DNA of 32,000 nucleotides, from assembly GCF_000015805.1 (NCBI RefSeq), contig NC_009073.1, positions 1,200,001 to 1,232,000 of the forward strand, given 5' to 3'. The notes beneath the pieces were generated by a model. It did not search any database, was not told the origin of the DNA, and saw nothing but the letters and a program-made list of their open reading frames with translations. Shown here piece by piece: positions 1,095 to 21,482 of this stretch (position 1 is the stretch's first letter; the number at the start of each line of letters is the position of its first letter). A program made the position numbers and the translations under genes. The DNA comes from Pyrobaculum calidifontis JCM 11548. Lineage in GTDB: Archaea; Thermoproteota; Thermoprotei; Thermoproteales; Thermoproteaceae.

Positions 1095-1919
1095 ATGAAA
1101 CTCAAAGTGCAAAACCTTAAGCACATTACCGAGGCTGTGCTGGAAGGCGACAGAATCATCTTATATGGTCCTAATGGCGGGGGCAAGTCCACGCTGATAC
1201 ACACTGTGGCCCTAATCCTTGGGGCCGCTCTCGGAGTAAAGGCCCACGACGAAAATATTATAAACCAAGGGGACTTCCACGACGACACATACGTGAGGTT
1301 TGAAGATTTCGACGTGTTTGAGATCAGACAACGTAAGCTGTGGTGGAGGGGGAGAGCCTACCCCCTCACGGAGCCCCTTAAAGTCGCAGACTTCTCTCTA
1401 TGGCATATAACCGAGTCCTATTTCGCCATATACGGTAGAGTTCCGCAGTGCTTGGGCGACCCCATTGAGGGAGTTCCCTCGGGCGTCATAGGATACAGCT
1501 ACTTTGATATAAGAGTGCTTTGTCCAGCGGCAGCTGAAGCCTCGGAAGACCTTTTTAAAATCTACTACAATGTGGCCGAGATAGGACTCGACGGAGCGAC
1601 GACGTGGACTACGCTGTCCCGCCTCTCCTACGGCCAGAGGAGGGCCATCGTTATCCTCGCCGCCCTCGAGCTCGGCGGTTATGTCTTAATTGAAAACTTG
1701 GAGTCCGGTCTCCACCTCGATTTACTAGTGTATGTGCTTAACGCCGCCTCGGTTTCAAAGGGCAAAGTTATTGCAGAGACCCACAGCGGATTAGCCCTTA
1801 AGCTAGCTGTAAAATACGGTATACAGCCATACTACGTTGAAAGAAGCGTAGAGAAGATAACAAACTTTGACATCAAGTTATTTAAGCGTGAAGCAGAAGT
1901 TTTTTCATCCTTAATATGA
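1095..1919 (+). CDS. ABC/SMC-like (AAA_21-type) P-loop ATPase, CRISPR-adjacent
   Basis: Walker A is LYGPNGGGKSTL. The ABC-signature-like motif is LSYGQRRAIVILAAL. The Walker B region is YVLIENLESGLHLD and the H-loop is AETHS. The stop overlaps the next ORF's start (ATGA at 1916-1919). Confidence 0.75.
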   Translation: MKLKVQNLKHITEAVLEGDRIILYGPNGGGKSTLIHTVALILGAALGVKAHDENIINQGDFHDDTYVRFEDFDVFEIRQRKLWWRGRAYPLTEPLKVADFSLWHITESYFAIYGRVPQCLGDPIEGVPSGVIGYSYFDIRVLCPAAAEASEDLFKIYYNVAEIGLDGATTWTTLSRLSYGQRRAIVILAALELGGYVLIENLESGLHLDLLVYVLNAASVSKGKVIAETHSGLALKLAVKYGIQPYYVERSVEKITNFDIKLFKREAEVFSSLI

Positions 1920-2359
1920 GACTTACTACTAATATAAAAACTCTAAGAGGTCTATCCATCTATATACAAAATAAAAATGTAAACTCTCTAAAATGTAGTG
2001 ACGATTTATGCAAAGCGCCATTTACTGGCAACTGCCTTGAGTGTTGCTGTAGTCCTGACTATCCCGAGTGTAGAGATATATTTAAGTGTTGTTGTTGTGT
2101 AACAAGACGCGGCGATTATGATTTTATATGTAAAAGTAAAAATAAAATAGTAGCTATAGAAGTAAAAGACGTAGAAGAATTAGATGAATACATCGAAAAT
2201 ATTGAGAATAAAGATAAAAACAGCAGAACATATTGGAGTATAGCTGAAGTTTACATTGTCGTCTATGGTAGAGGAAAATCGAAACGAGGCAAAGAAAGGC
2301 TAAAAAAGATAGGTAAAGTAATACACTGCACGCATGGTCTCACATGTAGGATATGTTAA
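1916..2359 (+). CDS. Cysteine-rich small protein with a PD-(D/E)xK-like nuclease motif
   Basis: 147 aa with 20 Cys, including CLECCC and KCCCC runs and a C-terminal HCTHGLTCRIC. GDYDF...(12 aa)...VAIEVKD fits the D-x(n)-E-x-K motif. The ORF is very AT-rich compared with its flanks. It overlaps both neighbouring ORFs (ATGA at 1916; 7 nt at 2353-2359). Confidence 0.5.
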   Translation: MRLTTNIKTLRGLSIYIQNKNVNSLKCSDDLCKAPFTGNCLECCCSPDYPECRDIFKCCCCVTRRGDYDFICKSKNKIVAIEVKDVEELDEYIENIENKDKNSRTYWSIAEVYIVVYGRGKSKRGKERLKKIGKVIHCTHGLTCRIC

Positions 2360-2898
2360 TCGCCCTCTTGGAGAAGGGCATCTGCGGCGGAGGGTGTGGA
2401 GGGCTGGGGAAGGCCTTGGAGGTGCTGGGGGAGGGGGAGCCATACCTCGCCGAGTGCAGATACGGGGACTACTTCGCCTTCTGCCACCCCGGCGACAGGT
2501 ACGACTACCTAGTCCTCAGGTTAGACACGTCGAGGTTGGAGGGAGACCACGACCCTGAGGACTACAAGCCTTCCGCCGTGTCCAAAGATCTCGTGTTGAA
2601 GAAGCTCCTGGAGCTGAAGGACGTAGTGTGCGCCATCTGGGAGAGGCTCCGACCCCTCGTCCTAATCTTCACTACAAACCCCTACATCCAGGACTACACC
2701 CTGGGCCCCGGCATGATGCCCTGGGACGTGATAGAAGTGGCCTGGCGCCCCCAAGGCGCCGAATGTGCAAAGATCATAGACGTGCGCGAGCTCCCCGACC
2801 TCGAAATACCCTTCGTCAAAGTAAACGTGTGGGAAAAGCCCCCCACCCTCTGCATCCAAGCCGCCGAGACAGCGGAAGGCCGCCGCCCAGAGAAATAG
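2353..2898 (+). CDS. Hypothetical protein, third gene of the cmr6-proximal cassette
   Basis: 181-aa ORF with native GC-rich codon usage. Its start overlaps the previous stop. It shares a CxRxGDYxFxC motif with the preceding ORF (ECRYGDYFAFC versus CVTRRGDYDFIC). No family is recognised. Confidence 0.55.
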   Translation: MLIALLEKGICGGGCGGLGKALEVLGEGEPYLAECRYGDYFAFCHPGDRYDYLVLRLDTSRLEGDHDPEDYKPSAVSKDLVLKKLLELKDVVCAIWERLRPLVLIFTTNPYIQDYTLGPGMMPWDVIEVAWRPQGAECAKIIDVRELPDLEIPFVKVNVWEKPPTLCIQAAETAEGRRPEK

Positions 2899-3289
2899 GC
2901 TCCGCCCCTCAGGCTCTATTCCTCACGCTGGAGACGAGGGTTGCGCGAGTATGCCACCGCGTCTAACGGCTTGTGGCATAGTAAAGAAGCAACGAGGGAA
3001 GAAGACGTGAGAGAAGCCCTAAGACGCATTTTACAACAATAGACTACATAGACGTCGGCGTTTTTAAAACGTCGTGCAACTCTCCCTTGGCATTTGTCAA
3101 TATTTCAGCTCTCCCCGCCGTACGGCGTTTATATATCGTGGAGATCCAATTTAAAAAACGTCGTGCAGGAGAAAAGCGTACACCGGCGCCGAGAGTTGAA
3201 GATACGCCTTCAACTATTCCACAGTTGAAAGAGGTGGCAGACAAGCCGTAAGGGATCAATTCTAGTAAACTCAAAAGCACGCCGCACAC

Positions 3290-3350
3290 CCTCTAAAAGA
3301 CACCAAAGAAAAACTTAAAAACTAACAAAAACAAATGCCCAAGAAACCCA
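3290..3350 (+). promoter_or_regulatory. CRISPR leader with putative promoter
   Basis: An A-rich, low-complexity tract sits immediately 5' of repeat 1 (CTCTAAAAGACACCAAAGAAAAACTTAAAAACTAACAAAAACAAATG...). The TATA-like CTTAAAAAC lies about 30 nt upstream of the first repeat. Confidence 0.55.
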
Positions 3351-5855
3351 GAATCTCAAGAAGAGGATTGAAAGGTTGTACGCCGCCGAGCGGGAGCGAC
3401 GCGGTGGTTTGGTTTGAATCTCAAGAAGAGGATTGAAAGTCCTCTTGGATCAACTACCACCGTTACCACTACGACTCAGGTGCGAGAATCTCAAGAAGAG
3501 GATTGAAAGACTGTCAGCGATCCAGCTCCACCACCCGCTCCGGAGGACACGAATCTCAAGAAGAGGATTGAAAGCTCTATACGCCGTCGCCAGGATAAGC
3601 TCATTGCTTACAACAGTGAATCTCAAGAAGAGGATTGAAAGTCCAAAACCTAGACGCCCTCCTCCAGTCACCGTCGGGACTTTGGAATCTCAAGAAGAGG
3701 ATTGAAAGAATCACTCCGGACCCGCTATTAATCGTGGCGGGGTTCAACCGTCAGAATCTCAAGAAGAGGATTGAAAGATATATTGAATCAATAAGGTCCG
3801 ACGACACCCGTTCAAGCAGGGACCCGGAATCTCAAGAAGAGGATTGAAAGTGACCTCTGGGGTCTCCTCCTCTTTATCAACGTAGACCCTTTTGTGAATC
3901 TCAAGAAGAGGATTGAAAGACTCTATGCGGCCCACGAATTCCTCAGACTCAAGCGTAGGAATCTCAAGAAGAGGATTGAAAGGCCCTCACCGTGTTGATA
4001 TTGACGCTCGCATACATATTCATTGTGAATCTCAAGAAGAGGATTGAAAGACAGACCTCTTGAGGAGGTTCGAGGGGTCGCAGGTGTCCCTCGCCGAATC
4101 TCAAGAAGAGGATTGAAAGATTGGCGTTGGCGTCCCGGTGAAAATACTGCGCCACGATGGGAGGGAATCTCAAGAAGAGGATTGAAAGATAGTACTTGCC
4201 AGAGCCTAACACGACTATAGTGTTCCATATGAATCTCAAGAAGAGGATTGAAAGCATTTTTGCGGCGGCGAGCTCCTCGCCGAATAGCAAGCGGAATCTC
4301 AAGAAGAGGATTGAAAGTCTGGCGCACCAATCTCGTACACGTCCCCCACCTCATCTACGAGAATCTCAAGAAGAGGATTGAAAGTTGGGCGCCTTTACCA
4401 CGGGGGCCGCATTTATGATTACTATAGATGAATCTCAAGAAGAGGATTGAAAGTTTCCAGTGTGAAAAAATATCGGTTACTACAGTGTGAATTATGCGAA
4501 TCTCAAGAAGAGGATTGAAAGCCGCACCCGCGATAGGCACTAACCACTTCATGATGCTATGAATCTCAAGAAGAGGATTGAAAGTCCTCGCCACCTGCCT
4601 GACGACGAGGGCGCACTCCTCCGCAGCGGAATCTCAAGAAGAGGATTGAAAGTAGCTTTGGTAGCGGCAGTGTGAAGTGCCCCTCTGGGCCATCAAGAAT
4701 CTCAAGAAGAGGATTGAAAGATTTCAAAGCCACGTTTGGGTAAAACTGTATAACTCTGTCCAAGAATCTCAAGAAGAGGATTGAAAGCTCCTGGCGCAGA
4801 TGTTATTGCATTTGGCAGAGATGTGCGGAATCTCAAGAAGAGGATTGAAAGTATTGCTCCCTCAGCTCCCTAGCCAGCCTCTGCGCCCTGTCAGAATCTC
4901 AAGAAGAGGATTGAAAGAGTCCACCAGCACCGCGGTGGGCGCACGCGCGTGCGCAAGGGCCGGAATCTCAAGAAGAGGATTGAAAGTCTTTTTTGGGGGG
5001 CGTTCCTGCGCCCCCTAAACCCCCTTTGCCGAATCTCAAGAAGAGGATTGAAAGCCTACGTGGCCAATCTCGTGGCCGACCAGCTTCTCAGTCGGAATCT
5101 CAAGAAGAGGATTGAAAGCAGGCTGGCACAGAGTGGGGACCTGCCCCTCGTCCTCCTACGAATCTCAAGAAGAGGATTGAAAGTTATTACCGTGCGCCTT
5201 ATTTTGCCAATAGTGTCTTCCTCCTCGAATCTCAAGAAGAGGATTGAAAGTACGTATTTGGGCCCACACGTCTTGTGTAATCGCACGAGACCACGAATCT
5301 CAAGAAGAGGATTGAAAGCACTTTGGGCATGGGTCGCTGTGGTGCAACAGCTTTCCTCTACGAATCTCAAGAAGAGGATTGAAAGTCGCCCGCAACGCCA
5401 ACAGGCGGGTCTGCAGGCATTCGGCCCTGAATCTCAAGAAGAGGATTGAAAGTCGCGGAGAGGAATATCGTGTATAACTACGGAGAGACGCGGAATCTCA
5501 AGAAGAGGATTGAAAGATGTAGCGCGCCAGTATTCCGATTATATAGCCAGCCACGTATTGGAATCTCAAGAAGAGGATTGAAAGTGTATGAATCCCACTA
5601 TCGCATCGCTAATAGACTTAAACTCAGCCGAATCTCAAGAAGAGGATTGAAAGCAGACCGTGAGGCCGCCCCCACCGGTTAAAGGTGTTATGGAATCTCA
5701 AGAAGAGGATTGAAAGCTTTATCTCGCTCTCCCCTTTTTGCTCTACTACGTTACCCATGGGAATCTCAAGAAGATGATTGAAAGCATGGGAGACGTAAAC
5801 GCCGTTGTGTCCAACGTCTATGCAGTAAACGGAATCTCAAGAAGAGGATTGAAAG
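3351..5855 (+). CRISPR. CRISPR array, 38 repeats and 37 spacers
   Basis: The 24-nt repeat GAATCTCAAGAAGAGGATTGAAAG runs from 3351-3374 to 5832-5855. Spacers are unique and 39-49 nt long. The penultimate repeat (5761-5784) carries a G>T change (AAGATGATTG). Three things set the orientation to +: the 3' ATTGAAAG tag, the leader position, and the degenerate repeat at the distal end. Confidence 0.98.
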
Positions 5856-5995: not shown

Positions 5996-6564
5996 GGGGT
6001 GGGGGGGCGCTACCTGTTTTGGGTGGTGGATGTGGAGAGGGTGGGGGAGGAGATGGCGCTTAAGCTTTTGGAGGCGCCGGGGAGGGTTCAGCTTTATGGG
6101 GGGTCGGCGTCGTTGGAGGTGGTGGAGGGGGTTTTGGAGGAGGTGTCGCCGCTTCGGCGTGGCCGTTTTGTGTCTGTGCGGTTTTTGACGCCTGCGCTTT
6201 TGCAGTATCCTAAGCCTCCGAGGGTGAGGGCGCCGTCGGTGAACGCGCTGTATCCTCAGCCGCGGCTCGTGGTGCTTAGTCTGGTGAATAGGGCGAGGGT
6301 GTATGGGGTGGAGGCTCCCCTTTCCCTGTACGTCTACGCGCCTTTTGACCTTGTGGAGTCTACCCACGCCATTAAGCCGGCGGCGGTGACGTGGGGCCTC
6401 ACAGGGCTGTGGGGTTTGTGGGGCCGGTGCTCTACAGGGTGAACGCGCCTGAGAAGAGGTGGCGGTGGCTCTCTCTGCTCCTCTCCCTGGCGAGGTACAT
6501 CGGGGGGGGGGGGCGGGCCACGTCGATGGGGTTCGGCTGGGTGGAGGTGACGCCGGTAGACTAG
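5996..6564 (+). pseudogene. cas6: cas6-like remnant, 5'-truncated and frameshifted
   Basis: The first frame (5999-6442) gives RFVSVRFLTPALL and YPQPRLVVLSLVNRA. A second frame (6376-6564) gives GFVGPVLYRV...LARYIGGGGRATSMGFGWVEVTPVD*, the Cas6 C-terminal G-rich loop. The two frames overlap at 6376-6442, implying a 1-nt indel. Only about 189 codons are present and an in-frame stop lies at 5993-5995, so the N-terminal ~1/3 of a typical Cas6 is missing. Confidence 0.6.
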
Positions 6565-6791
6565 GCGTTTAAATGTCACAGACCTCCCCGCTTGCCACAG
6601 TCTTCCGCTCGACGGACTCCGTGTCGTATTGCCTTTATGTGGACAGATTCTGCGTTGGCGGCGTGTCCCCCTTATACCATGTGTGTCTCCTGTTTGAAGT
6701 TGCCTTTGTCTCATTGCGCGGTGCTTAAGCAGGCTAGATTGTCGTTCTCCTGCTGTTTGGGCCATATGTTTAGCTTGTGTGGAGTCAGCTT

Positions 6792-7733
6792 TTAGGGTAG
6801 TGATAGAAGGGCAAGCTTTGCTAAAATTCGCTTCGTATCATCTATATGTTTGCTTGTATTTTCTTTTGAGAGGGATTTTGCTAGCCGAGCCCAAAGCGTC
6901 CTGTTTCGCATACTGGTAACTTGCTTATGTTCTGCGATGATCTTTGCCTTGTCCATGTGGCCCTCGGCGATGAGTCTTATGATTTCTACTAATTCAGACG
7001 AAGCTAGAGTGATTTCGAGTTCTAGGTCTTCTTCTGTTTCTCTAAAGAGGTTGTGTGCGTGATTAGTGCCAAGTTTTTCATTAACGTATTTTTTAAAGGC
7101 GTTTCGACTTTTTGCCGCGCGAAGCAATTTGGAACACTCCTTTTCCATAACTATTGCCATTAGAACCGACGCCGCACAGACTATGTGATCTGTCACATCA
7201 CACTTGGAAAGGTAATGGTTCCATACCTTAATGCAATTTTCTACGTCGCATTGCCCCTCTTTTAGACATTTGAGAACTATTTGGTAGTATGGATGAGAGT
7301 GCAATAGGGCATTTCTCGCTTTATAAAAGTCTTCTTTTGTGTCGGCGCCATGGAGCATCAATAGGCCTGAAACAAGGGCCCAGTTGTAAGGGTCTGAGAT
7401 TATAATTCTTTGCATTTTTCTATATTCTTCTATTGCGTTAGCTAAATTATTTTCTAATAGGTGGGCTATTATACGAGATGAGGCGAGATCACTATCAATT
7501 ACTTGTGTTTCACTTATTGTAATTTTTAACAATTCTAATGCAGTATCTTCGTACTGTGTTTTCAATAATTCTTTGGCAATTTTTTGGCATATTTCTATGA
7601 AGAATTTTATTTTTATATTTTGTAAATATCTAGTACAAAGATCTATAAATTTGCTGTGAAGTGTATTTTTGTCAAGAGAACAAATAGTGATCATCCGTGT
7701 TAGAAAGGAGAAGATACATCTAAAGAGTTCCAT
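6792..7733 (-). CDS. AT-rich alpha-helical repeat (TPR-like) protein; possibly the detached C-terminal part of the upstream NTPase
   Basis: 313-aa ORF from ATG 7733 with a helix-rich, Leu/Lys/Glu/Ile-rich sequence. The same frame stays stop-free for a further 83 codons upstream (7734-7982) and contains no ATG, GTG or TTG there. Confidence 0.6.
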   Translation of the reverse strand: MELFRCIFSFLTRMITICSLDKNTLHSKFIDLCTRYLQNIKIKFFIEICQKIAKELLKTQYEDTALELLKITISETQVIDSDLASSRIIAHLLENNLANAIEEYRKMQRIIISDPYNWALVSGLLMLHGADTKEDFYKARNALLHSHPYYQIVLKCLKEGQCDVENCIKVWNHYLSKCDVTDHIVCAASVLMAIVMEKECSKLLRAAKSRNAFKKYVNEKLGTNHAHNLFRETEEDLELEITLASSELVEIIRLIAEGHMDKAKIIAEHKQVTSMRNRTLWARLAKSLSKENTSKHIDDTKRILAKLALLSLP

Positions 7734-7966
7734 TATGGCGTCTTCTGTGTTATAAAAAGTATATTCAATATCTAAATATTCTTTTGCTTCTTCTCTTATT
7801 ATTTCATATATATATTTAGATAGTTGTTTTAAGTTTTCAACAACTAGGGATATTAGTCGGCTACATATTGGTGATTTTCTGAATAGAGATAACGGAATTT
7901 TTGTGGCTAATATGAGTGATGCTAGATTGCATTTAATACTATTATATGAATTACAAATATCGTTTA

Positions 7967-10846
7967 TTATTCTTCGATTTTCTCAATCATGTATTTGTGT
8001 TCTGTTATCTCTGTGTTATATAGTAAACTTATTAGAGCTTTTCCATAGTAAATTTTTCCAATCCAATTTAATTTGCTAGGTTCGATAAACTTTACAAGGT
8101 TTTGGTCATAGGAGGATAGCTGAGCAATAATGACGGCGGCCTCGTTGAACATCTCCCTTTCAATTAGATGGCGTATGAACTCCCTGGCCCATGTCAGTGC
8201 CTCTTCTGTTGGTATGATGTTTCCTATCTGTTTGGCGAGTACTTTCCATGCCTTGTCTATGCATTGCCCTAGTCTGCCTTTCGAGAGAGCTAAGATGGCT
8301 AGGGGTGTCGGTTCAAGTAGTTCTCCTCTTTCTATGGCTCTTTGGTGGAGATGTTCTATAGCTTGACAGTGGTCAATGATATAGGTAAATCTATGTACTG
8401 ATTTTTGTAAAAATAAAATTACAGATAACGGCATGTAGTTATCTACAAATATCCATTCGCCAAGATCGCCCCTCTGAGATTTTATCTTCGGATAAACTAA
8501 TTCTACTCTTACATTCAACAAGGATTCACCCACTGCTTCAAGGAATTCCCAGGTGTGTCTTTCTATTGCTTCTCTTAGTTCTTTCCTTTGTGCAAGTTGT
8601 TCGAAGAGTACGTCGACGGGGTCTCCTCCTCCACAGTTGCCGACTACTCTGGCTGGCGACTTTAGTCTTTCTGCTACTTCGGCGAGTGTGTTCTCGATAT
8701 TCATTATATATTTAAGCGCTGTCTTTCCTTTTAGCATTGGCTCTACCTGTGCGGATAAGGTGCCTTGGGCTAGTTCTTTTATGACTTCTTCGATTAAGTC
8801 TTCATGTTCTTCTGCTAGCCACTTCTTGATGAATTCCCTTGCTTCGTCGCCTCCCTGGATTGGGACGCTGTGGAGTGGGGTGTTGCAGTATAGTGTGTTG
8901 TCTCTTGGGTCTATTTGTGGGATTTCTTCTAGCCACTTTGGGGGCATGGGGCCGAGTTTGGCGCGGGCGAGGAAGGGTATTGCGAGGGCCCATAAGAGCC
9001 GGCTGTCGCCTTGGAAAATGCCTTTGTATATGTACAGGGCGAGGAAGGTCTTGGCGTTGCCGCCGCCTGCCTCTACGGCTTTTGCCACGTTGGTTGCGCA
9101 ACCTGCCTGTCTTAGCCACTCGCCGGCATATCTGGCCACTAGGGTGTAGCCGCCTTCGTATTTCTCGGCTATTTCACGTCCGATTTTTTGATATACCTCG
9201 TCTTTGCACGTGGTGCCGCTGTATGCTTTTACGATTTCTGCTAGGAATTGGGGCTGGCGTAGGTCTACCTCCACTGCCATGTGGGCGTCAAGGCGTTGTT
9301 TGAGTTCACTGGGCAATGTAGCGTATATGTCGTTTGGCAGTACCACTACCACGGGTATGGGGCTGCCTTCCTCTAGCAACCTCTCGTGTAGGTCTAGGAG
9401 GTGTCGGATTATTTGGCCTATAGCCGTGGGCTGAGGCGCGTCAGAAGGCGCTTCGTAGTACGGGGGTGTGGCTGGGTCGTAGAAGAGTACGGGAGTGTGG
9501 AGTGCCATCTTCACCGTTATGCTGAGTTTGTGGAATTCCTCGGTTGGCTCCTTATGCGTCGGGCCTATCTTGTATACGCGGAAGTTTCCTGTGCTTAGTG
9601 CCTTGGCTAGGGCGTATAGCGTCAGCGTAGATTTGCCGATGCCCTTCTCTCCCCGTACGACGACAAATTTGCCTTCGCGTATCCCGTCTAATATTTCCTC
9701 CGCCTGCTTTGCGAAGCTGTCTGTGACTACTAGGGGCTTGTCCGAACCATAGACGTGGAAGACCCCCCTCTCTAGATCGAAGCCGAGGTCCTTCGGCCTC
9801 TTCCATACTTCGCTTACTATTCCTAATACTTGCAACTCGGTTTCAGCCTCTTCTACCCTTTTCTTGAGTTTTTCGAGCTCTTTCCACGCTTTGTCTAGTC
9901 TGTCTTCCAGCTCTTTCTTCAGCCTTTCTATGTCGTCTTTTGTGGCTATTTTAGAGCGGAGAAGCTTTGCGGCGTTTTCTGCGAGGGTTTTGAACTTCTC
10001 TATGCTTAGGCCCCACCCGTCGTTGGCCACCTCGGCTACTACGGCTTCGAAACTGGGGTTTTGTAGATAGGGGCTGGCTTCTGCGGCGGCTTTGGCGAAT
10101 TGTACCACCGCCTCGATAAAGTGGTCGCGTGCTCTGCCTTTTGTCAAGAGTTTTTCTAGTAGGTCCTCGCTTCTGATTCCCAGCCGGCTGGATAGCTTGT
10201 GCACTTTGTCTATGAGCCAGCTACCTGTGCCAGATCTCTCCAGTAGCTCTATTCCGAGGTGAAGGACTTCTGCAACTAGCTGGGCTCCAACTTTTGTTGC
10301 CAAGTCTTCTAGCACTTCGGCTAATAGCTCCTTTGCGCTTCTTTGTCGTGGACGTAGCCTTCTTATGGCTTTTATGCCTTTTTCAACTTCTAGGGGGTTT
10401 AGCTGAAGTAGAGATATGGAGATGCCTTCTGTTGTTTTTGCAATGTGTCTTAGCTTCTTGTAGCGTACTTTGGCGTAGTTGTAGCTACTTCCTAGAAGCC
10501 GTTGATAGATGGAGGGCAGGTCTATGACTTTTCTGCGTTTTGTGGCAAGGTGTTGATAGAGATCTCGTGCGGCCAGGTTGTCTAGGGGTATGGCTATGAC
10601 CTTGGCGTCTTCTTTGAGTATTTTGTCTTTGTCGAGGGGTTCTGTGCCGGGTTCGTCTGCCTTGTATGTTAGGATTTTGACGGGGGTGTCGCACTTTGCC
10701 GCCGCTCTTCTTGCCACTTCGTGTCGGGCTGAGCCCGGCGTTACTAATATCACAACGTCTGTCCCGGGGATGGCTCCGCAGAGTTCTTTTGCCACGTCCT
10801 CCGCCGCCTGGTTTACTAAGCGTTCAAAGAGGTCTGCAAGCAACAA
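7967..10846 (-). CDS. Large STAND/AAA-like P-loop NTPase with an N-terminal alpha/beta domain, a coiled coil and C-terminal helical repeats
   Basis: 959 aa. Walker A is VVVRGEKGIGKSTLTLYA. Candidate Walker B is TPVLFYDP, and a later PVVVVLPND strand follows. A coiled-coil segment (DDIERLKKELEDRLDKAWKELEKLKKRVEEAETEL) precedes the NTPase. The helical C-terminal half becomes AT-rich after about 8130. Confidence 0.8.
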   Translation of the reverse strand: MLLADLFERLVNQAAEDVAKELCGAIPGTDVVILVTPGSARHEVARRAAAKCDTPVKILTYKADEPGTEPLDKDKILKEDAKVIAIPLDNLAARDLYQHLATKRRKVIDLPSIYQRLLGSSYNYAKVRYKKLRHIAKTTEGISISLLQLNPLEVEKGIKAIRRLRPRQRSAKELLAEVLEDLATKVGAQLVAEVLHLGIELLERSGTGSWLIDKVHKLSSRLGIRSEDLLEKLLTKGRARDHFIEAVVQFAKAAAEASPYLQNPSFEAVVAEVANDGWGLSIEKFKTLAENAAKLLRSKIATKDDIERLKKELEDRLDKAWKELEKLKKRVEEAETELQVLGIVSEVWKRPKDLGFDLERGVFHVYGSDKPLVVTDSFAKQAEEILDGIREGKFVVVRGEKGIGKSTLTLYALAKALSTGNFRVYKIGPTHKEPTEEFHKLSITVKMALHTPVLFYDPATPPYYEAPSDAPQPTAIGQIIRHLLDLHERLLEEGSPIPVVVVLPNDIYATLPSELKQRLDAHMAVEVDLRQPQFLAEIVKAYSGTTCKDEVYQKIGREIAEKYEGGYTLVARYAGEWLRQAGCATNVAKAVEAGGGNAKTFLALYIYKGIFQGDSRLLWALAIPFLARAKLGPMPPKWLEEIPQIDPRDNTLYCNTPLHSVPIQGGDEAREFIKKWLAEEHEDLIEEVIKELAQGTLSAQVEPMLKGKTALKYIMNIENTLAEVAERLKSPARVVGNCGGGDPVDVLFEQLAQRKELREAIERHTWEFLEAVGESLLNVRVELVYPKIKSQRGDLGEWIFVDNYMPLSVILFLQKSVHRFTYIIDHCQAIEHLHQRAIERGELLEPTPLAILALSKGRLGQCIDKAWKVLAKQIGNIIPTEEALTWAREFIRHLIEREMFNEAAVIIAQLSSYDQNLVKFIEPSKLNWIGKIYYGKALISLLYNTEITEHKYMIEKIEE

Positions 10847-10911: not shown

Positions 10912-14040
<3,129 letters not shown>

Positions 14041-14233
14041 GGCTACGCGCACATGCGCATTTAAAACACTTAGCCTCCGCAGACTTTCTAAAGGCCGCGG
14101 AGAGCACGGCGCGCTTGGGTACGGCGCACGCTTGCCAGAGGTGGAACATGGGCAAAGCCCCGCCGCGGGCGGCGACCAGCGCGCTGGAGGCGGCGCTCTG
14201 TATCCGCCTAAACGCAACGCGGTTTGACAAGTC

Positions 14234-20588: not shown

Positions 20589-21482
20589 GTGGTTGTGGAT
20601 CTTGCCCAGCTTAAGGCCGCTCTTCTCAAGCTGTTGAAGGAGGATGAGGAGTTTAGGTACGCAGTGGCTGGGCTAATTGGGCTAGAGGAGATTCTGAGGA
20701 GGCTTGATAGACACGAGGAACTTCTCGTGGAACTCTTCAAGAGGCTTAAGAGACACGAGGAGGAGCTTGTGAAAATTTGGGAAGAGCTGGCAAGGCTGAG
20801 GGAGGACATGAACAAGGGGTTCCAGCGTTACGACCAACTCTTTGCCGAGGTATTTAAACGGTTGGATCGCCATGAGGAGGAGCTTGTGCGTTTAAGAGAA
20901 GACATGAATAGGGGGTTCCAACGCTACGACCAGCTATTCGCTGAGGTGTTCAAGAGGCTGGATCGCCACGAGGAAGAGTTGGTGAAGCTTAGGGAGGACA
21001 TGAACAAGGGGTTCGCGCAACACGAGGAGAGGATTGGGGGAGTGGAGAAGGAGCTTGCCAAGCTTAGGGAAGATATGAATAAGGGCTTTGACCGGCTTCA
21101 GCGTCGTCTTGATGCCCTGGGCGCTAGGTGGGGCGTTATGAGTGAGAAGGCTTTCCGCGAGGGCCTTCGTGGCGTTGTGGAGGAGGAGCTTGGCCTCAGG
21201 GTAGAGAGGTGGACGGCGTACGACGGGGAGGGCAAGGTGTTCGGCTTCCCAAGCGAGGTAGAGGTGGACGTCGCCGTTAAAGACGGCAAGGTCATACTCA
21301 TCGAAATTACGTCACACGCCAGGGCGCCTGACGTGATCATCTTCAAGAAAAAGGCCGATCTATACGCCGAGAAAGAGGGCAGAAGGCCAGACAGACTTAT
21401 TATTATCACGCCCTACGCCGAAGAAGATGCGAAAAAAGTCGCGGAGAGGCTGGGAATTGAAATCTACACGGGGGGCGACTAA
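20589..21482 (+). CDS. Coiled-coil repeat protein with a C-terminal PD-(D/E)xK-like (DUF3782-like) domain, paREP-type
   Basis: Four LREDMN(K/R)GF repeats lie in a coiled coil. The C-terminus (FPSEVEVDVAVKDGKVILIEITSHARAPDV..LIIITPY) has a restriction-endonuclease-like E-x-D...E-x-T/K layout. The start is set at GTG 20589 or 20595, just downstream of the TATA-like CTTATATAC at 20568-20576. The ORF-track start is 20445. Confidence 0.7.
   Translation: MVVDLAQLKAALLKLLKEDEEFRYAVAGLIGLEEILRRLDRHEELLVELFKRLKRHEEELVKIWEELARLREDMNKGFQRYDQLFAEVFKRLDRHEEELVRLREDMNRGFQRYDQLFAEVFKRLDRHEEELVKLREDMNKGFAQHEERIGGVEKELAKLREDMNKGFDRLQRRLDALGARWGVMSEKAFREGLRGVVEEELGLRVERWTAYDGEGKVFGFPSEVEVDVAVKDGKVILIEITSHARAPDVIIFKKKADLYAEKEGRRPDRLIIITPYAEEDAKKVAERLGIEIYTGGD
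20796..20987 (+). repeat. Tandem 96-bp (32-codon) intragenic duplication
   Basis: Unit 1 (20796-20891) encodes LREDMNKGFQRYDQLFAEVFKRLDRHEEELVR. Unit 2 (20892-20987) encodes LREDMNRGFQRYDQLFAEVFKRLDRHEEELVK. Nucleotide differences are mostly at third codon positions. Partial further copies start at 20988 and 21063. Confidence 0.85.

Follow-up and report, generated by a model that had tools for sequence, protein, structure and literature searches.

At the end of a type III-B (Cmr) gene cluster of Pyrobaculum calidifontis JCM 11548 is a cassette of three overlapping open reading frames (ORFs), placed between cmr6 and a CRISPR array. The cassette occupies positions 1095–2898 of the window, by which we mean the whole stretch of 32,000 nucleotides that was analysed (contig NC_009073.1, positions 1,200,001 to 1,232,000 of the forward strand); window positions are used throughout, and the related loci and contigs with which it was compared are referred to here as L001–L022. 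The window opens with the 3′ end of cmr1 (Pcal_1286, 4–375, + strand), the encoded C-terminus of which aligns with the 343–391 aa RAMP protein preceding cmr6 in L007, L008 and L010. This gene is cmr1 and not cmr5, and is so named in the gene list of Bernick et al. 2012 (PMC3396285), where Pcal_1285–1287 appear as cmr4, cmr1 and cmr6 and the three cassette genes are unmentioned. Next is cmr6 (Pcal_1287, 348–1070, + strand; TIGR01898 E = 3.6e-27, PADLOC Cmr6 E = 1.8e-33), the final core gene of the cmr4–cmr1–cmr6 submodule.

Separated from the end of cmr6 by a gap of 24 nt, the cassette begins with ORF1 (Pcal_1288, 1095–1919, + strand), which encodes an ABC-type (AAA_21/Cas_RecF) ATPase of 274 aa. 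It continues with ORF2 (Pcal_1289, 1916–2359, + strand), encoding a Cys-rich protein of 147 aa that we propose as a nuclease effector, and ends with ORF3 (Pcal_1290, 2353–2898, + strand), encoding the 181-aa protein RFas, a proposed adaptor or regulator. The three proteins are 100% identical to Pcal_1288, Pcal_1289 and Pcal_1290, and ORF1 is identical at the same level to WP_011849970. Read directly from the sequence, the ORF1/ORF2 junction is an ATGA overlap (1916–1919); the ORF2/ORF3 junction is a 7-nt overlap, ATGTTAA (2353–2359), and the three genes are translationally coupled.

Below ORF3 are a spacer and the CRISPR leader (2899–3350, + strand), which are non-coding and hold no conserved ORF, followed by the array itself (3351–5855, + strand), composed of 38 repeats of GAATCTCAAGAAGAGGATTGAAAG (Rfam CRISPR-DR45). 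CRISPR repeats were the sole family found in the Rfam scan, which returned nothing else for the spacer and leader. The array is Crispr6 of Bernick et al. 2012 (PMC3396285), listed there at 1203351–1205855, and the two sets of coordinates agree. An initial annotation of this DNA, made from the letters and their ORFs, had given the ORF coordinates, the ATGA at 1916, the 7-nt overlap at 2353 and the 24-nt gap after cmr6, all of which proved correct; it had also placed the cassette about 390 nt before the leader, and the distance of 452 nt from the ORF3 stop codon to the first repeat (3351) fits this with a leader of ~60 nt.

Overlapping the cmr6 stop codon is a candidate promoter (1059–1073, + strand), with a purine-rich run as a possible transcription factor B recognition element (BRE) and a TATAAAA box (1066–1072) centred ~26 nt before the ORF1 ATG. 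A/T-rich boxes 20–35 nt before the ATPase start are also present in L007, L008, L009, L012/L013 and L014, with a weaker one in L010. Owing to this recurrence at a like distance in most loci, and to the promoter architecture of archaea and the leaderless mRNAs of Pyrobaculum, the trio probably has its own leaderless promoter inside the end of cmr6, with possible read-through from the cmr genes in addition. At the other end of the trio, the spacer between RFas and the array contains an 18-nt direct repeat (region 3056–3167), formed by TTTTTAAAACGTCGTGCA (3061–3078) and TTTAAAAAACGTCGTGCA (3150–3167), at a spacing of 89 nt; within the repeat is a T5 run at which the trio transcript could end. In the array, the penultimate repeat (5761–5784) has a single substitution, GAGG to GATG, and this degenerate repeat together with the 3′ ATTGAAAG handle fits transcription of the array on the + strand from the RFas side. 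Rfam places the repeats on the − strand, which we take to be a matter of how the model happens to be oriented.

The cassette as such was known before, its ATPase and ORF3 belonging to catalogued but uncharacterised CRISPR-associated (Cas) accessory families. Vestergaard et al. 2014 (PMC3973734, Table 5) described Cas_RecF as a RecF-domain ATPase close to type III systems of Crenarchaeota, invariably accompanied by RFas (RecF-associated protein), a name given to diverse small proteins of ~170 aa, and reported that Cas_RecF co-evolves with its CRISPR-Cas partner. In Shah et al. 2019 (PMC6546367, Table 2), Cas_RecF is cluster 17 and cas_RFas comprises clusters 83, 84, 108 (representative Pcal_0278) and 211 (representative Pars_1112); both are among the accessory genes most strongly associated with Cas, the small partners are without domain matches, and the supply of energy by the ATPase is offered as speculation only. 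Both surveys took in this genus, and even this genome, and the two families are presented there as mutually obligate. At the present locus, an ABC/RecF-type ATPase stands directly beside a crenarchaeal type III module, the adjacent orphan of ~170 aa (ORF3) matches the cas_RFas profile, and in 10 lineages the ATPase is accompanied by both ORF2 and ORF3, with one further copy cut at a contig end. The cassette very probably represents, in a three-gene form, the Cas_RecF/RFas type of accessory operon of a type III-B (Cmr) locus of Crenarchaeota.

The initial annotation had read the three products as an ABC/AAA_21-like ATPase, a Cys-rich D..ExK protein and a 181-aa orphan, none of them a core Cmr subunit, and these domain readings hold. 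The cassette is less novel than this annotation had claimed, which had itself named membership of known Cas accessory families as a ground for refutation: the ATPase and ORF3 are so catalogued, as Cas_RecF and RFas, and it is ORF2 that is uncatalogued in searchable sources. Pcal_1289 is unmentioned in any searchable paper (the supplementary tables of the surveys lay outside this search). The gene has a GenBank entry, ABO08713.1, and, unlike both its neighbours, is without a RefSeq WP_ accession; the current RefSeq annotation apparently omits a conserved gene.

The ATPase has Pfam matches to AAA_21 (E = 7.5e-13) and ABC_tran (E = 6.9e-6), and at its N-terminus weak RecF/SMC_N matches (RecF TIGR00611, E = 9.6e-5). 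No ATPase-specific model was found for it in the PADLOC scan, where the top defence matches are AriA (the best, at 9.4e-13), AbiLi and NsnB. Among solved structures, the ATPase is closest to AriA of PARIS (E = 1.6e-10), with a weaker match to PtuA of Septu (~6e-4). The family alignment (A2) shows little or no variation in the Walker A motif GPNGGGKST, the signature LSYGQRR and the H-loop ETHS. The Walker B motif departs from the canonical hhhhD-E with its catalytic Glu. It reads VLIEN in ORF1 and (I/V)EN across all family members, and aligns to LIDEPE of AriA, which amounts to a shift of the metal-binding Asp to Glu and of the catalytic Glu to Asn. In ABC ATPases, E-to-Q mutants trap ATP-bound dimers; by this precedent, the invariant E-N Walker B predicts an ATPase that binds ATP, dimerises and hydrolyses slowly, acting as a switch and not as a motor. 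At 274 aa, ORF1 is also without the coiled-coil insertions that AriA, PtuA, GajA and LmuB carry.

The last protein of the cassette aligns over residues 1–181 with positions 1–171 of the 171-position PADLOC profile PDLC01095 (cas_RFas, 'Unknown function'; E = 1.8e-92), and has no Pfam, NCBIfam or PDB match. Because the PADLOC NurA and HerA models bear the Shah et al. 2019 wording 'Type III coevolved', and PDLC01095 is labelled 'Unknown function', this profile most probably equals cluster 211 of that survey. Strongly conserved in RFas is the N-terminus, ML(I/L)xLLxKG(I/L)CGGGCG (alignment A7); the conserved positions are mainly Gly and hydrophobic residues, with a few polar ones (D/E39, D51, R56, T59, Y71 and R100), and a weak AlphaFold2 (AF2) model describes an orphan α/β protein. 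Shah et al. 2019 (PMC6546367) suggest membrane association for cas_RFas cluster 108. A membrane-bound form of the present RFas was considered and rejected: its N-terminal segment MLIALLEKGICGGGCG is short, is broken by E and K, and was judged by eye not to be a transmembrane helix.

Encoded between these two proteins is ORF2, which has no significant match to any Pfam, PADLOC or PHROG model. Exhaustive HMMER searching with ORF2 returned only three clusters among 1.84 billion (1.84e9) representative proteins, and a 5.8-billion-cluster search gave one homologue cluster for ORF2, four for ORF3 and ten for the ATPase. In an alignment of 10 lineages (A8), C27, C43-C44-C45, D48, D69, C72, E82, K99 and a C-terminal Cys are invariant, and C32, C52 and C60 are near-invariant; about nine cysteines are conserved in the family. 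In the window protein, these residues are laid out as an N-terminal Cys cluster (C27, C32, C43–45, C52 and C60), a core (D69, C72, E82, K84 and K99) and the terminal Cys147. The core segment YDFICKSKNKIVAIEVK has the D...E-x-K spacing (D69...E82-x-K84) of minimal PD-(D/E)xK nucleases.

Three members of the ORF2 family independently give their best Pfam or NCBIfam match to PD-(D/E)xK families, each over this same core segment. For the window protein the best NCBIfam match is YraN (E = 0.015, 15 bits against a cutoff of 111), for the L014 homologue it is VRR_NUC (E = 2.3e-4, 21.6 bits against 23.8), and for member P0022 it is Hjc (E = 1.8e-3, 18.6 bits against 21.1), with NERD at E = 0.1. A Pfam scan with the ORF2 consensus sequence returned Hjc (E = 0.27) and nothing else, the NCBIfam scan of all members returned YraN for the window protein and no other match, and sequence profile searches of the PDB with ORF2 gave no credible match. 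From its motifs and these matches, ORF2 is likely to combine a PD-(D/E)xK nuclease fold with an N-terminal metal-binding Cys cluster. The possibility that ORF2 and ORF3 are paralogues was rejected (hhalign probability 0.1%).

The distribution of the trio was surveyed in fetched contexts and in genome and metagenome scans with the ATPase alignment, followed by local profile searches. Eleven lineages keep the order ATPase–ORF2–ORF3, the ATPase being down to 33% identical to the window protein among them. These are the P. calidifontis window with the near-identical contigs L006, L011 and L022; L001/L002; L003–L005; L009 (P. oguniense TE7); L010, a Thermoproteaceae metagenome-assembled genome (MAG); L014, L017, L018, L020 and L021; and, in part, L008 (a Thermoproteus MAG), whose contig ends inside ORF2. 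The ATGA overlap between the ATPase gene and ORF2 is conserved in at least six lineages, and every ORF2 homologue found sits between an ATPase gene and an RFas gene. In L007 the ATPase gene stands alone, without ORF2 and RFas.

Directly upstream of the ATPase gene, usually by ~20 nt, is cmr6 in all ten loci in which cmr6 was detected, a link that spans lineages only 33–50% identical. The CRISPR array is a looser neighbour, being inverted in L003, L004 and L009 and missing from L010, in which carB and other housekeeping genes come after the trio. The conserved neighbour of the trio is cmr6, not the CRISPR leader; of the linkage to CRISPR-cas genes by which the initial annotation had wished the cassette to be judged, the part concerning cmr6 stands and the part concerning the array is loose. 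Genome, metagenome and viral scans gave no member of the trio family beyond the type III-B loci of Thermoproteaceae. No viral relatives were detected in the IMG/VR scan or among PHROGs, the ORF2 and ORF3 alignments being too divergent for viral scanning, and a viral origin of the trio was rejected on these negative scans.

Some loci of the same ATPase clade are built differently. In L013 (1425–2011), L015 (2003–3984) and L016 (2217–4702), the ATPase gene is followed by genes for a 115-aa orphan, a 406-aa Zn-ribbon protein and a second, canonical AAA_21/AAA_15 ATPase; L012 is of the same locus type, its contig ending at the ATPase stop codon, and L013 adjoins cmr6. In P. oguniense TE7 (L009, 3715–7352), the module is duplicated in part: behind the ATPase–ORF2–RFas trio are a second ATPase gene, Pogu_1164, and an incomplete RFas, of which the N-terminus is left and which extends into the first CRISPR repeat.

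All three genes are under purifying selection, ORF2 more weakly than the others. The ratio of nonsynonymous to synonymous substitution rates (dN/dS) is 0.15–0.23 for the ATPase, 0.18–0.22 for ORF3 and 0.23–0.72 for ORF2, cmr6, ATPase and ORF3 together spanning 0.14–0.23; the pooled ORF2 value is clearly below 1. ORF2 is the least conserved member of the trio in 38 of 45 pairwise comparisons, and has the lowest GC content and the lowest GC content at third codon positions (GC3) in each of ten trios (window, L001, L004, L009, L010, L014, L017, L018, L020 and L021). In the window, GC3 is 0.25 for ORF2 (overall GC 33%), 0.57 for the ATPase and 0.81 for ORF3, and the codon adaptation index of ORF2 is 0.42 against 0.62–0.75 for 18 other window genes. 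This AT-richness could reflect toxicity of the gene, with its translation held low, recurrent exchange with relatives of low GC content, or a relaxation of selection.

Two further features of the family bear on exchange and loss. Nucleotide identity between the window and L022 (3449–4716) rises from 72–86% over 1095–1594 to 93–99% over 1595–2359, which places a recombination breakpoint inside the ATPase gene, at ~1500–1600. This jump in mid-gene implies that recombination exchanged the 3′ half of the ATPase gene and ORF2 more recently than the 5′ half. In L001 (913–2146), L002 and L003–L005 (REYS20 hot-spring metagenomes), one nucleotide is missing from the Walker A Asn codon of the ATPase gene, and ORF2 has nonsense codons, with TAG at the position of E51 in L001/L002 and a stop at the position of E111 in L003–L005; RFas is intact. 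The nonsense codons recur in independent assemblies (L001 and L002; L003, L004 and L005), as assembly-level calls. Because the ATPase and ORF2 genes are both inactivated in two lineages while RFas is intact, these alleles hint that the two proteins act as a functional pair.

Our preferred reading, to which we give about even odds, is that the trio is an ATP-gated nuclease module accessory to Cmr. Gene structure, conservation, linkage to cmr6, sequence motifs and evolutionary rates are observed, and from there the nuclease activity, the formation of a complex, the ATP gating and the coupling to Cmr are inferred. The ATPase would form ATP-sandwich dimers and serve as a slow-hydrolysing nucleotide switch or sensor, which in complex with ORF2 would hold or license its nuclease. 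The ORF2 core resembles those of Hjc, VRR-NUC and YraN, which are structure-specific DNA endonucleases; its Cys cluster would bind Zn or Fe-S and probably stabilise the fold, and RFas would serve as adaptor or regulator and might make the contact with the Cmr complex or with Cmr6. Such a module would give Cmr immunity a means of cutting DNA that works without a CARF or SAVED sensor, and, since these domains are absent, its activation would come from direct contact with Cmr or from the nucleotide state of the cell. One possibility, borrowed from structural work on Septu, in which ATP binding reportedly restrains the PtuAB nuclease, is a response to the ATP state of the cell as altered by Cas10 cyclase activity or by infection.

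A more elaborate version would have the ATPase read the nucleotide state or Cmr directly and release a metal-cluster, structure-specific DNA endonuclease as a CARF-independent type III-B output, with ORF2 forming an arms-race surface towards archaeal viruses and RFas tethering the module to Cmr6; in this full form we consider it speculative and rather doubtful. A different version, in which the trio supplies a DNase that Cas10 lacks, was rejected, as the neighbouring Cas10 (sequence read in L006) has both an HD dyad and GGDD.

Several observations weigh against an ATP-gated nuclease accessory to Cmr. Position 84 of ORF2 is Lys in seven of ten lineages and Thr in the other three, and its role could be taken over by K99, which is invariant and lies in the next helix; all the nuclease-family matches of ORF2 lie below the curated thresholds. 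The AF2 model of ORF2 is unusable (predicted local distance difference test score, pLDDT, 36; predicted template modelling score, pTM, 0.25), and the only part of it that agrees with the alpha-beta-beta-beta-alpha-beta fold of PD-(D/E)xK nucleases is a strand (78–82), a helix (86–102) and a strand (111–121). The model of ORF3 is weak (pLDDT 54.8, pTM 0.58, topology a-a-bbb-aa-b-b-a) and has no structural neighbour in the PDB; both runs were made with 3–5 input sequences only. The high dN/dS of ORF2 and its nonsense alleles could mean that it is dispensable. Gene order is the sole tie between the trio and Cmr that this analysis shows. The ATPase clade is also found beside quite different partner genes and, in L015 and L016, without cmr6 upstream, which shows some autonomy. 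HD and GGDD motifs are present in the Cas10 next to the trio, and Csx1, Csm6 and NurA–HerA are encoded nearby; with such a Cas10 and with Csx1/Csm6 at hand, there is no missing activity for the trio to fill.

Part of this evidence would suit an independent PARIS- or Septu-type cassette for abortive infection or innate defence, residing in the CRISPR island with no functional link to Cmr. The nearest relatives of the ATPase are AriA, PtuA, AbiLi and NsnB, the region is a defence island with a nurA–CARF–herA cluster and a STAND-like NTPase, the trio has a candidate promoter of its own, and its ATPase clade is found with other partners and, in L015 and L016, without cmr6; the recombination breakpoint and the mosaicism point to exchange of the cassette. 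Independence is nevertheless unlikely: in each of the ten loci in which cmr6 was detected the ATPase gene starts ~20 nt after it, a much closer association than residence in one island would give, the scans described above returned no family member beyond type III-B loci of Thermoproteaceae, and co-evolution of Cas_RecF with its CRISPR-Cas partner has been reported (PMC3973734). The initial annotation had left an accessory effector and an independent cassette side by side, and between these two the data, with cmr6 upstream in all ten loci in which it was detected and no relatives found in IMG/VR or among PHROGs, favour a type III accessory.

An accessory to Cmr need not be an effector, and the trio could instead assist assembly, loading or turnover of the Cmr ribonucleoprotein in a RecF–RecO–RecR-like manner, with the ATPase as a chaperone or clamp-like switch, ORF2 as a metal-binding nucleic-acid binder with a nuclease fold and RFas as adaptor. 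Replacement of the catalytic Walker-B Glu by Asn throughout, of Lys84 by Thr in three lineages, the absence of a catalytic-looking motif in RFas and the location at the extreme end of the cmr structural operon are all consistent with such a role. We nonetheless hold it to be quite unlikely: invariant D69, E82 and K99 are unexpected in a purely structural fold, the fast evolution of ORF2 with its arms-race-like features is atypical of housekeeping, and many type III-B loci function without the trio genes. It is improbable that the cassette, or ORF2 within it, is a decaying or selfish remnant, a toxin–antitoxin-like addiction element or a recent low-GC import without a role in immunity. The low GC, GC3 and codon adaptation of ORF2 relative to its neighbours, its missing WP accession, the nonsense and frameshift alleles in metagenomes and dN/dS values of up to 0.72 would be expected of a remnant; set against them are intact ORF2 genes with conserved Cys, D, E and K in nine lineages whose synonymous sites are saturated, a pooled dN/dS clearly below 1, and the conserved translational coupling.

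Located just past the array is a block of low GC content and low codon adaptation (6334–10846, − strand), with genes for two orphans of 143 and 313 aa and for a 959-aa protein that has weak P-loop/STAND matches only (AAA_22, nSTAND3). Its genes have no PADLOC match, and the block may contain an uncharacterised defence gene. Beyond it, at 10912–14217, are nurA (+ strand), a gene for a small CARF/Cas_APE2256 protein (+ strand) and herA (− strand), a cluster described by Bernick et al. 2012 (PMC3396285); NurA and HerA match the PADLOC 'Type III coevolved' models with E = 1e-104 and E = 9e-171, respectively. Within a coding region, at 20780–21014, a 96-nt unit is repeated in tandem, in 2.4 copies that are 74% matching.

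Nearly all characterised type III accessory effectors are activated by cyclic oligoadenylates (cOAs) that bind CARF or SAVED domains. If the middle gene does encode a nuclease under control of the ATPase, the trio would represent a second, cOA-independent type III route to DNA, and would connect the accessory genes of CRISPR systems with PARIS, Septu and Lamassu, in which an ABC ATPase is likewise joined to a nuclease. The finding is mainly a rediscovery. What it adds, relative to the searchable literature, is the nuclease-like core of Pcal_1289 and the strict conservation of this gene within the operon, the E-N Walker B that all members of the ATPase family share, and the unusual evolution of ORF2.

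With PARIS, the trio shares the logic of an ABC ATPase combined with a small nuclease, AriA being the nearest solved relative of its ATPase. The likeness is confined to the P-loop and to the block of signature, Walker B and H-loop: the solved AriA chains are 464 aa long, and AriA carries an inserted coiled coil and the usual D-E at Walker B, whereas the 274-aa ORF1 has no insertion and an E-N Walker B, and the trio has a third subunit and an obligate cmr6 neighbourhood. No match to the AriB (DUF4435/TOPRIM) partner was found in the cassette by PADLOC. The initial annotation had likened the cassette to Septu and Gabija, and as an analogy this is reasonable, given the AriA and PtuA relatives of the ATPase; membership in either system fails. 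As in Septu, an ATPase of the AAA_21/AAA_15 clade is paired with a putative nuclease, but the similarity to PtuA is weak (E ~6e-4; PADLOC 1.7e-4), the genes are three and CRISPR-linked, and neither ORF2 nor ORF3 has an HNH/PtuB match in Pfam or PADLOC. GajA models match the P-loop of ORF1 only (E = 1.6e-4), and neither a TOPRIM domain nor a UvrD-like helicase, as expected of Gabija, was found in the cassette by Pfam or PADLOC. Lamassu is also composed of three components, an ABC/SMC-type ATPase, a nuclease effector (LmuA, often a PD-(D/E)xK nuclease) and a small third protein. Its LmuB, by contrast, is large and has coiled coils, the PADLOC LmuB model matches ORF1 at the P-loop only (E = 2e-4), and no similarity to LmuA or LmuC was found in the trio.

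The CARF nucleases Can1, Can2/Card1 and Csx1/Csm6 are likewise ancillary nucleases encoded beside type III modules, and Can1, Can2 and Card1 have PD-(D/E)xK domains. Unlike these cOA-sensing effectors, no trio protein matches a CARF or SAVED domain in Pfam, NCBIfam or PADLOC, so that any coupling to Cmr must bypass the binding of cyclic oligoadenylates by CARF. Compared with Hjc, VRR-NUC and YraN, the ORF2 core is of equal size and has the same D...E-x-K spacing, as in YDFICKSKNKIVAIEVK; their N-terminal helix is replaced in ORF2 by the Cys cluster of ~60 residues, and K84 is not universal, the invariant lysine being K99 in the following helix. The closest counterpart of the trio is the Cas_RecF/RFas pair, in which an ABC/RecF-like ATPase likewise adjoins a type III module together with small orphans of ~170 aa. 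The present ATPase is shorter (274 aa; cluster 17 is given as ~330 aa), and to the published small partners, which are described as lacking recognisable domains and have been assigned no function, this locus adds a Cys-rich, PD-(D/E)xK-like middle gene, Pcal_1289.

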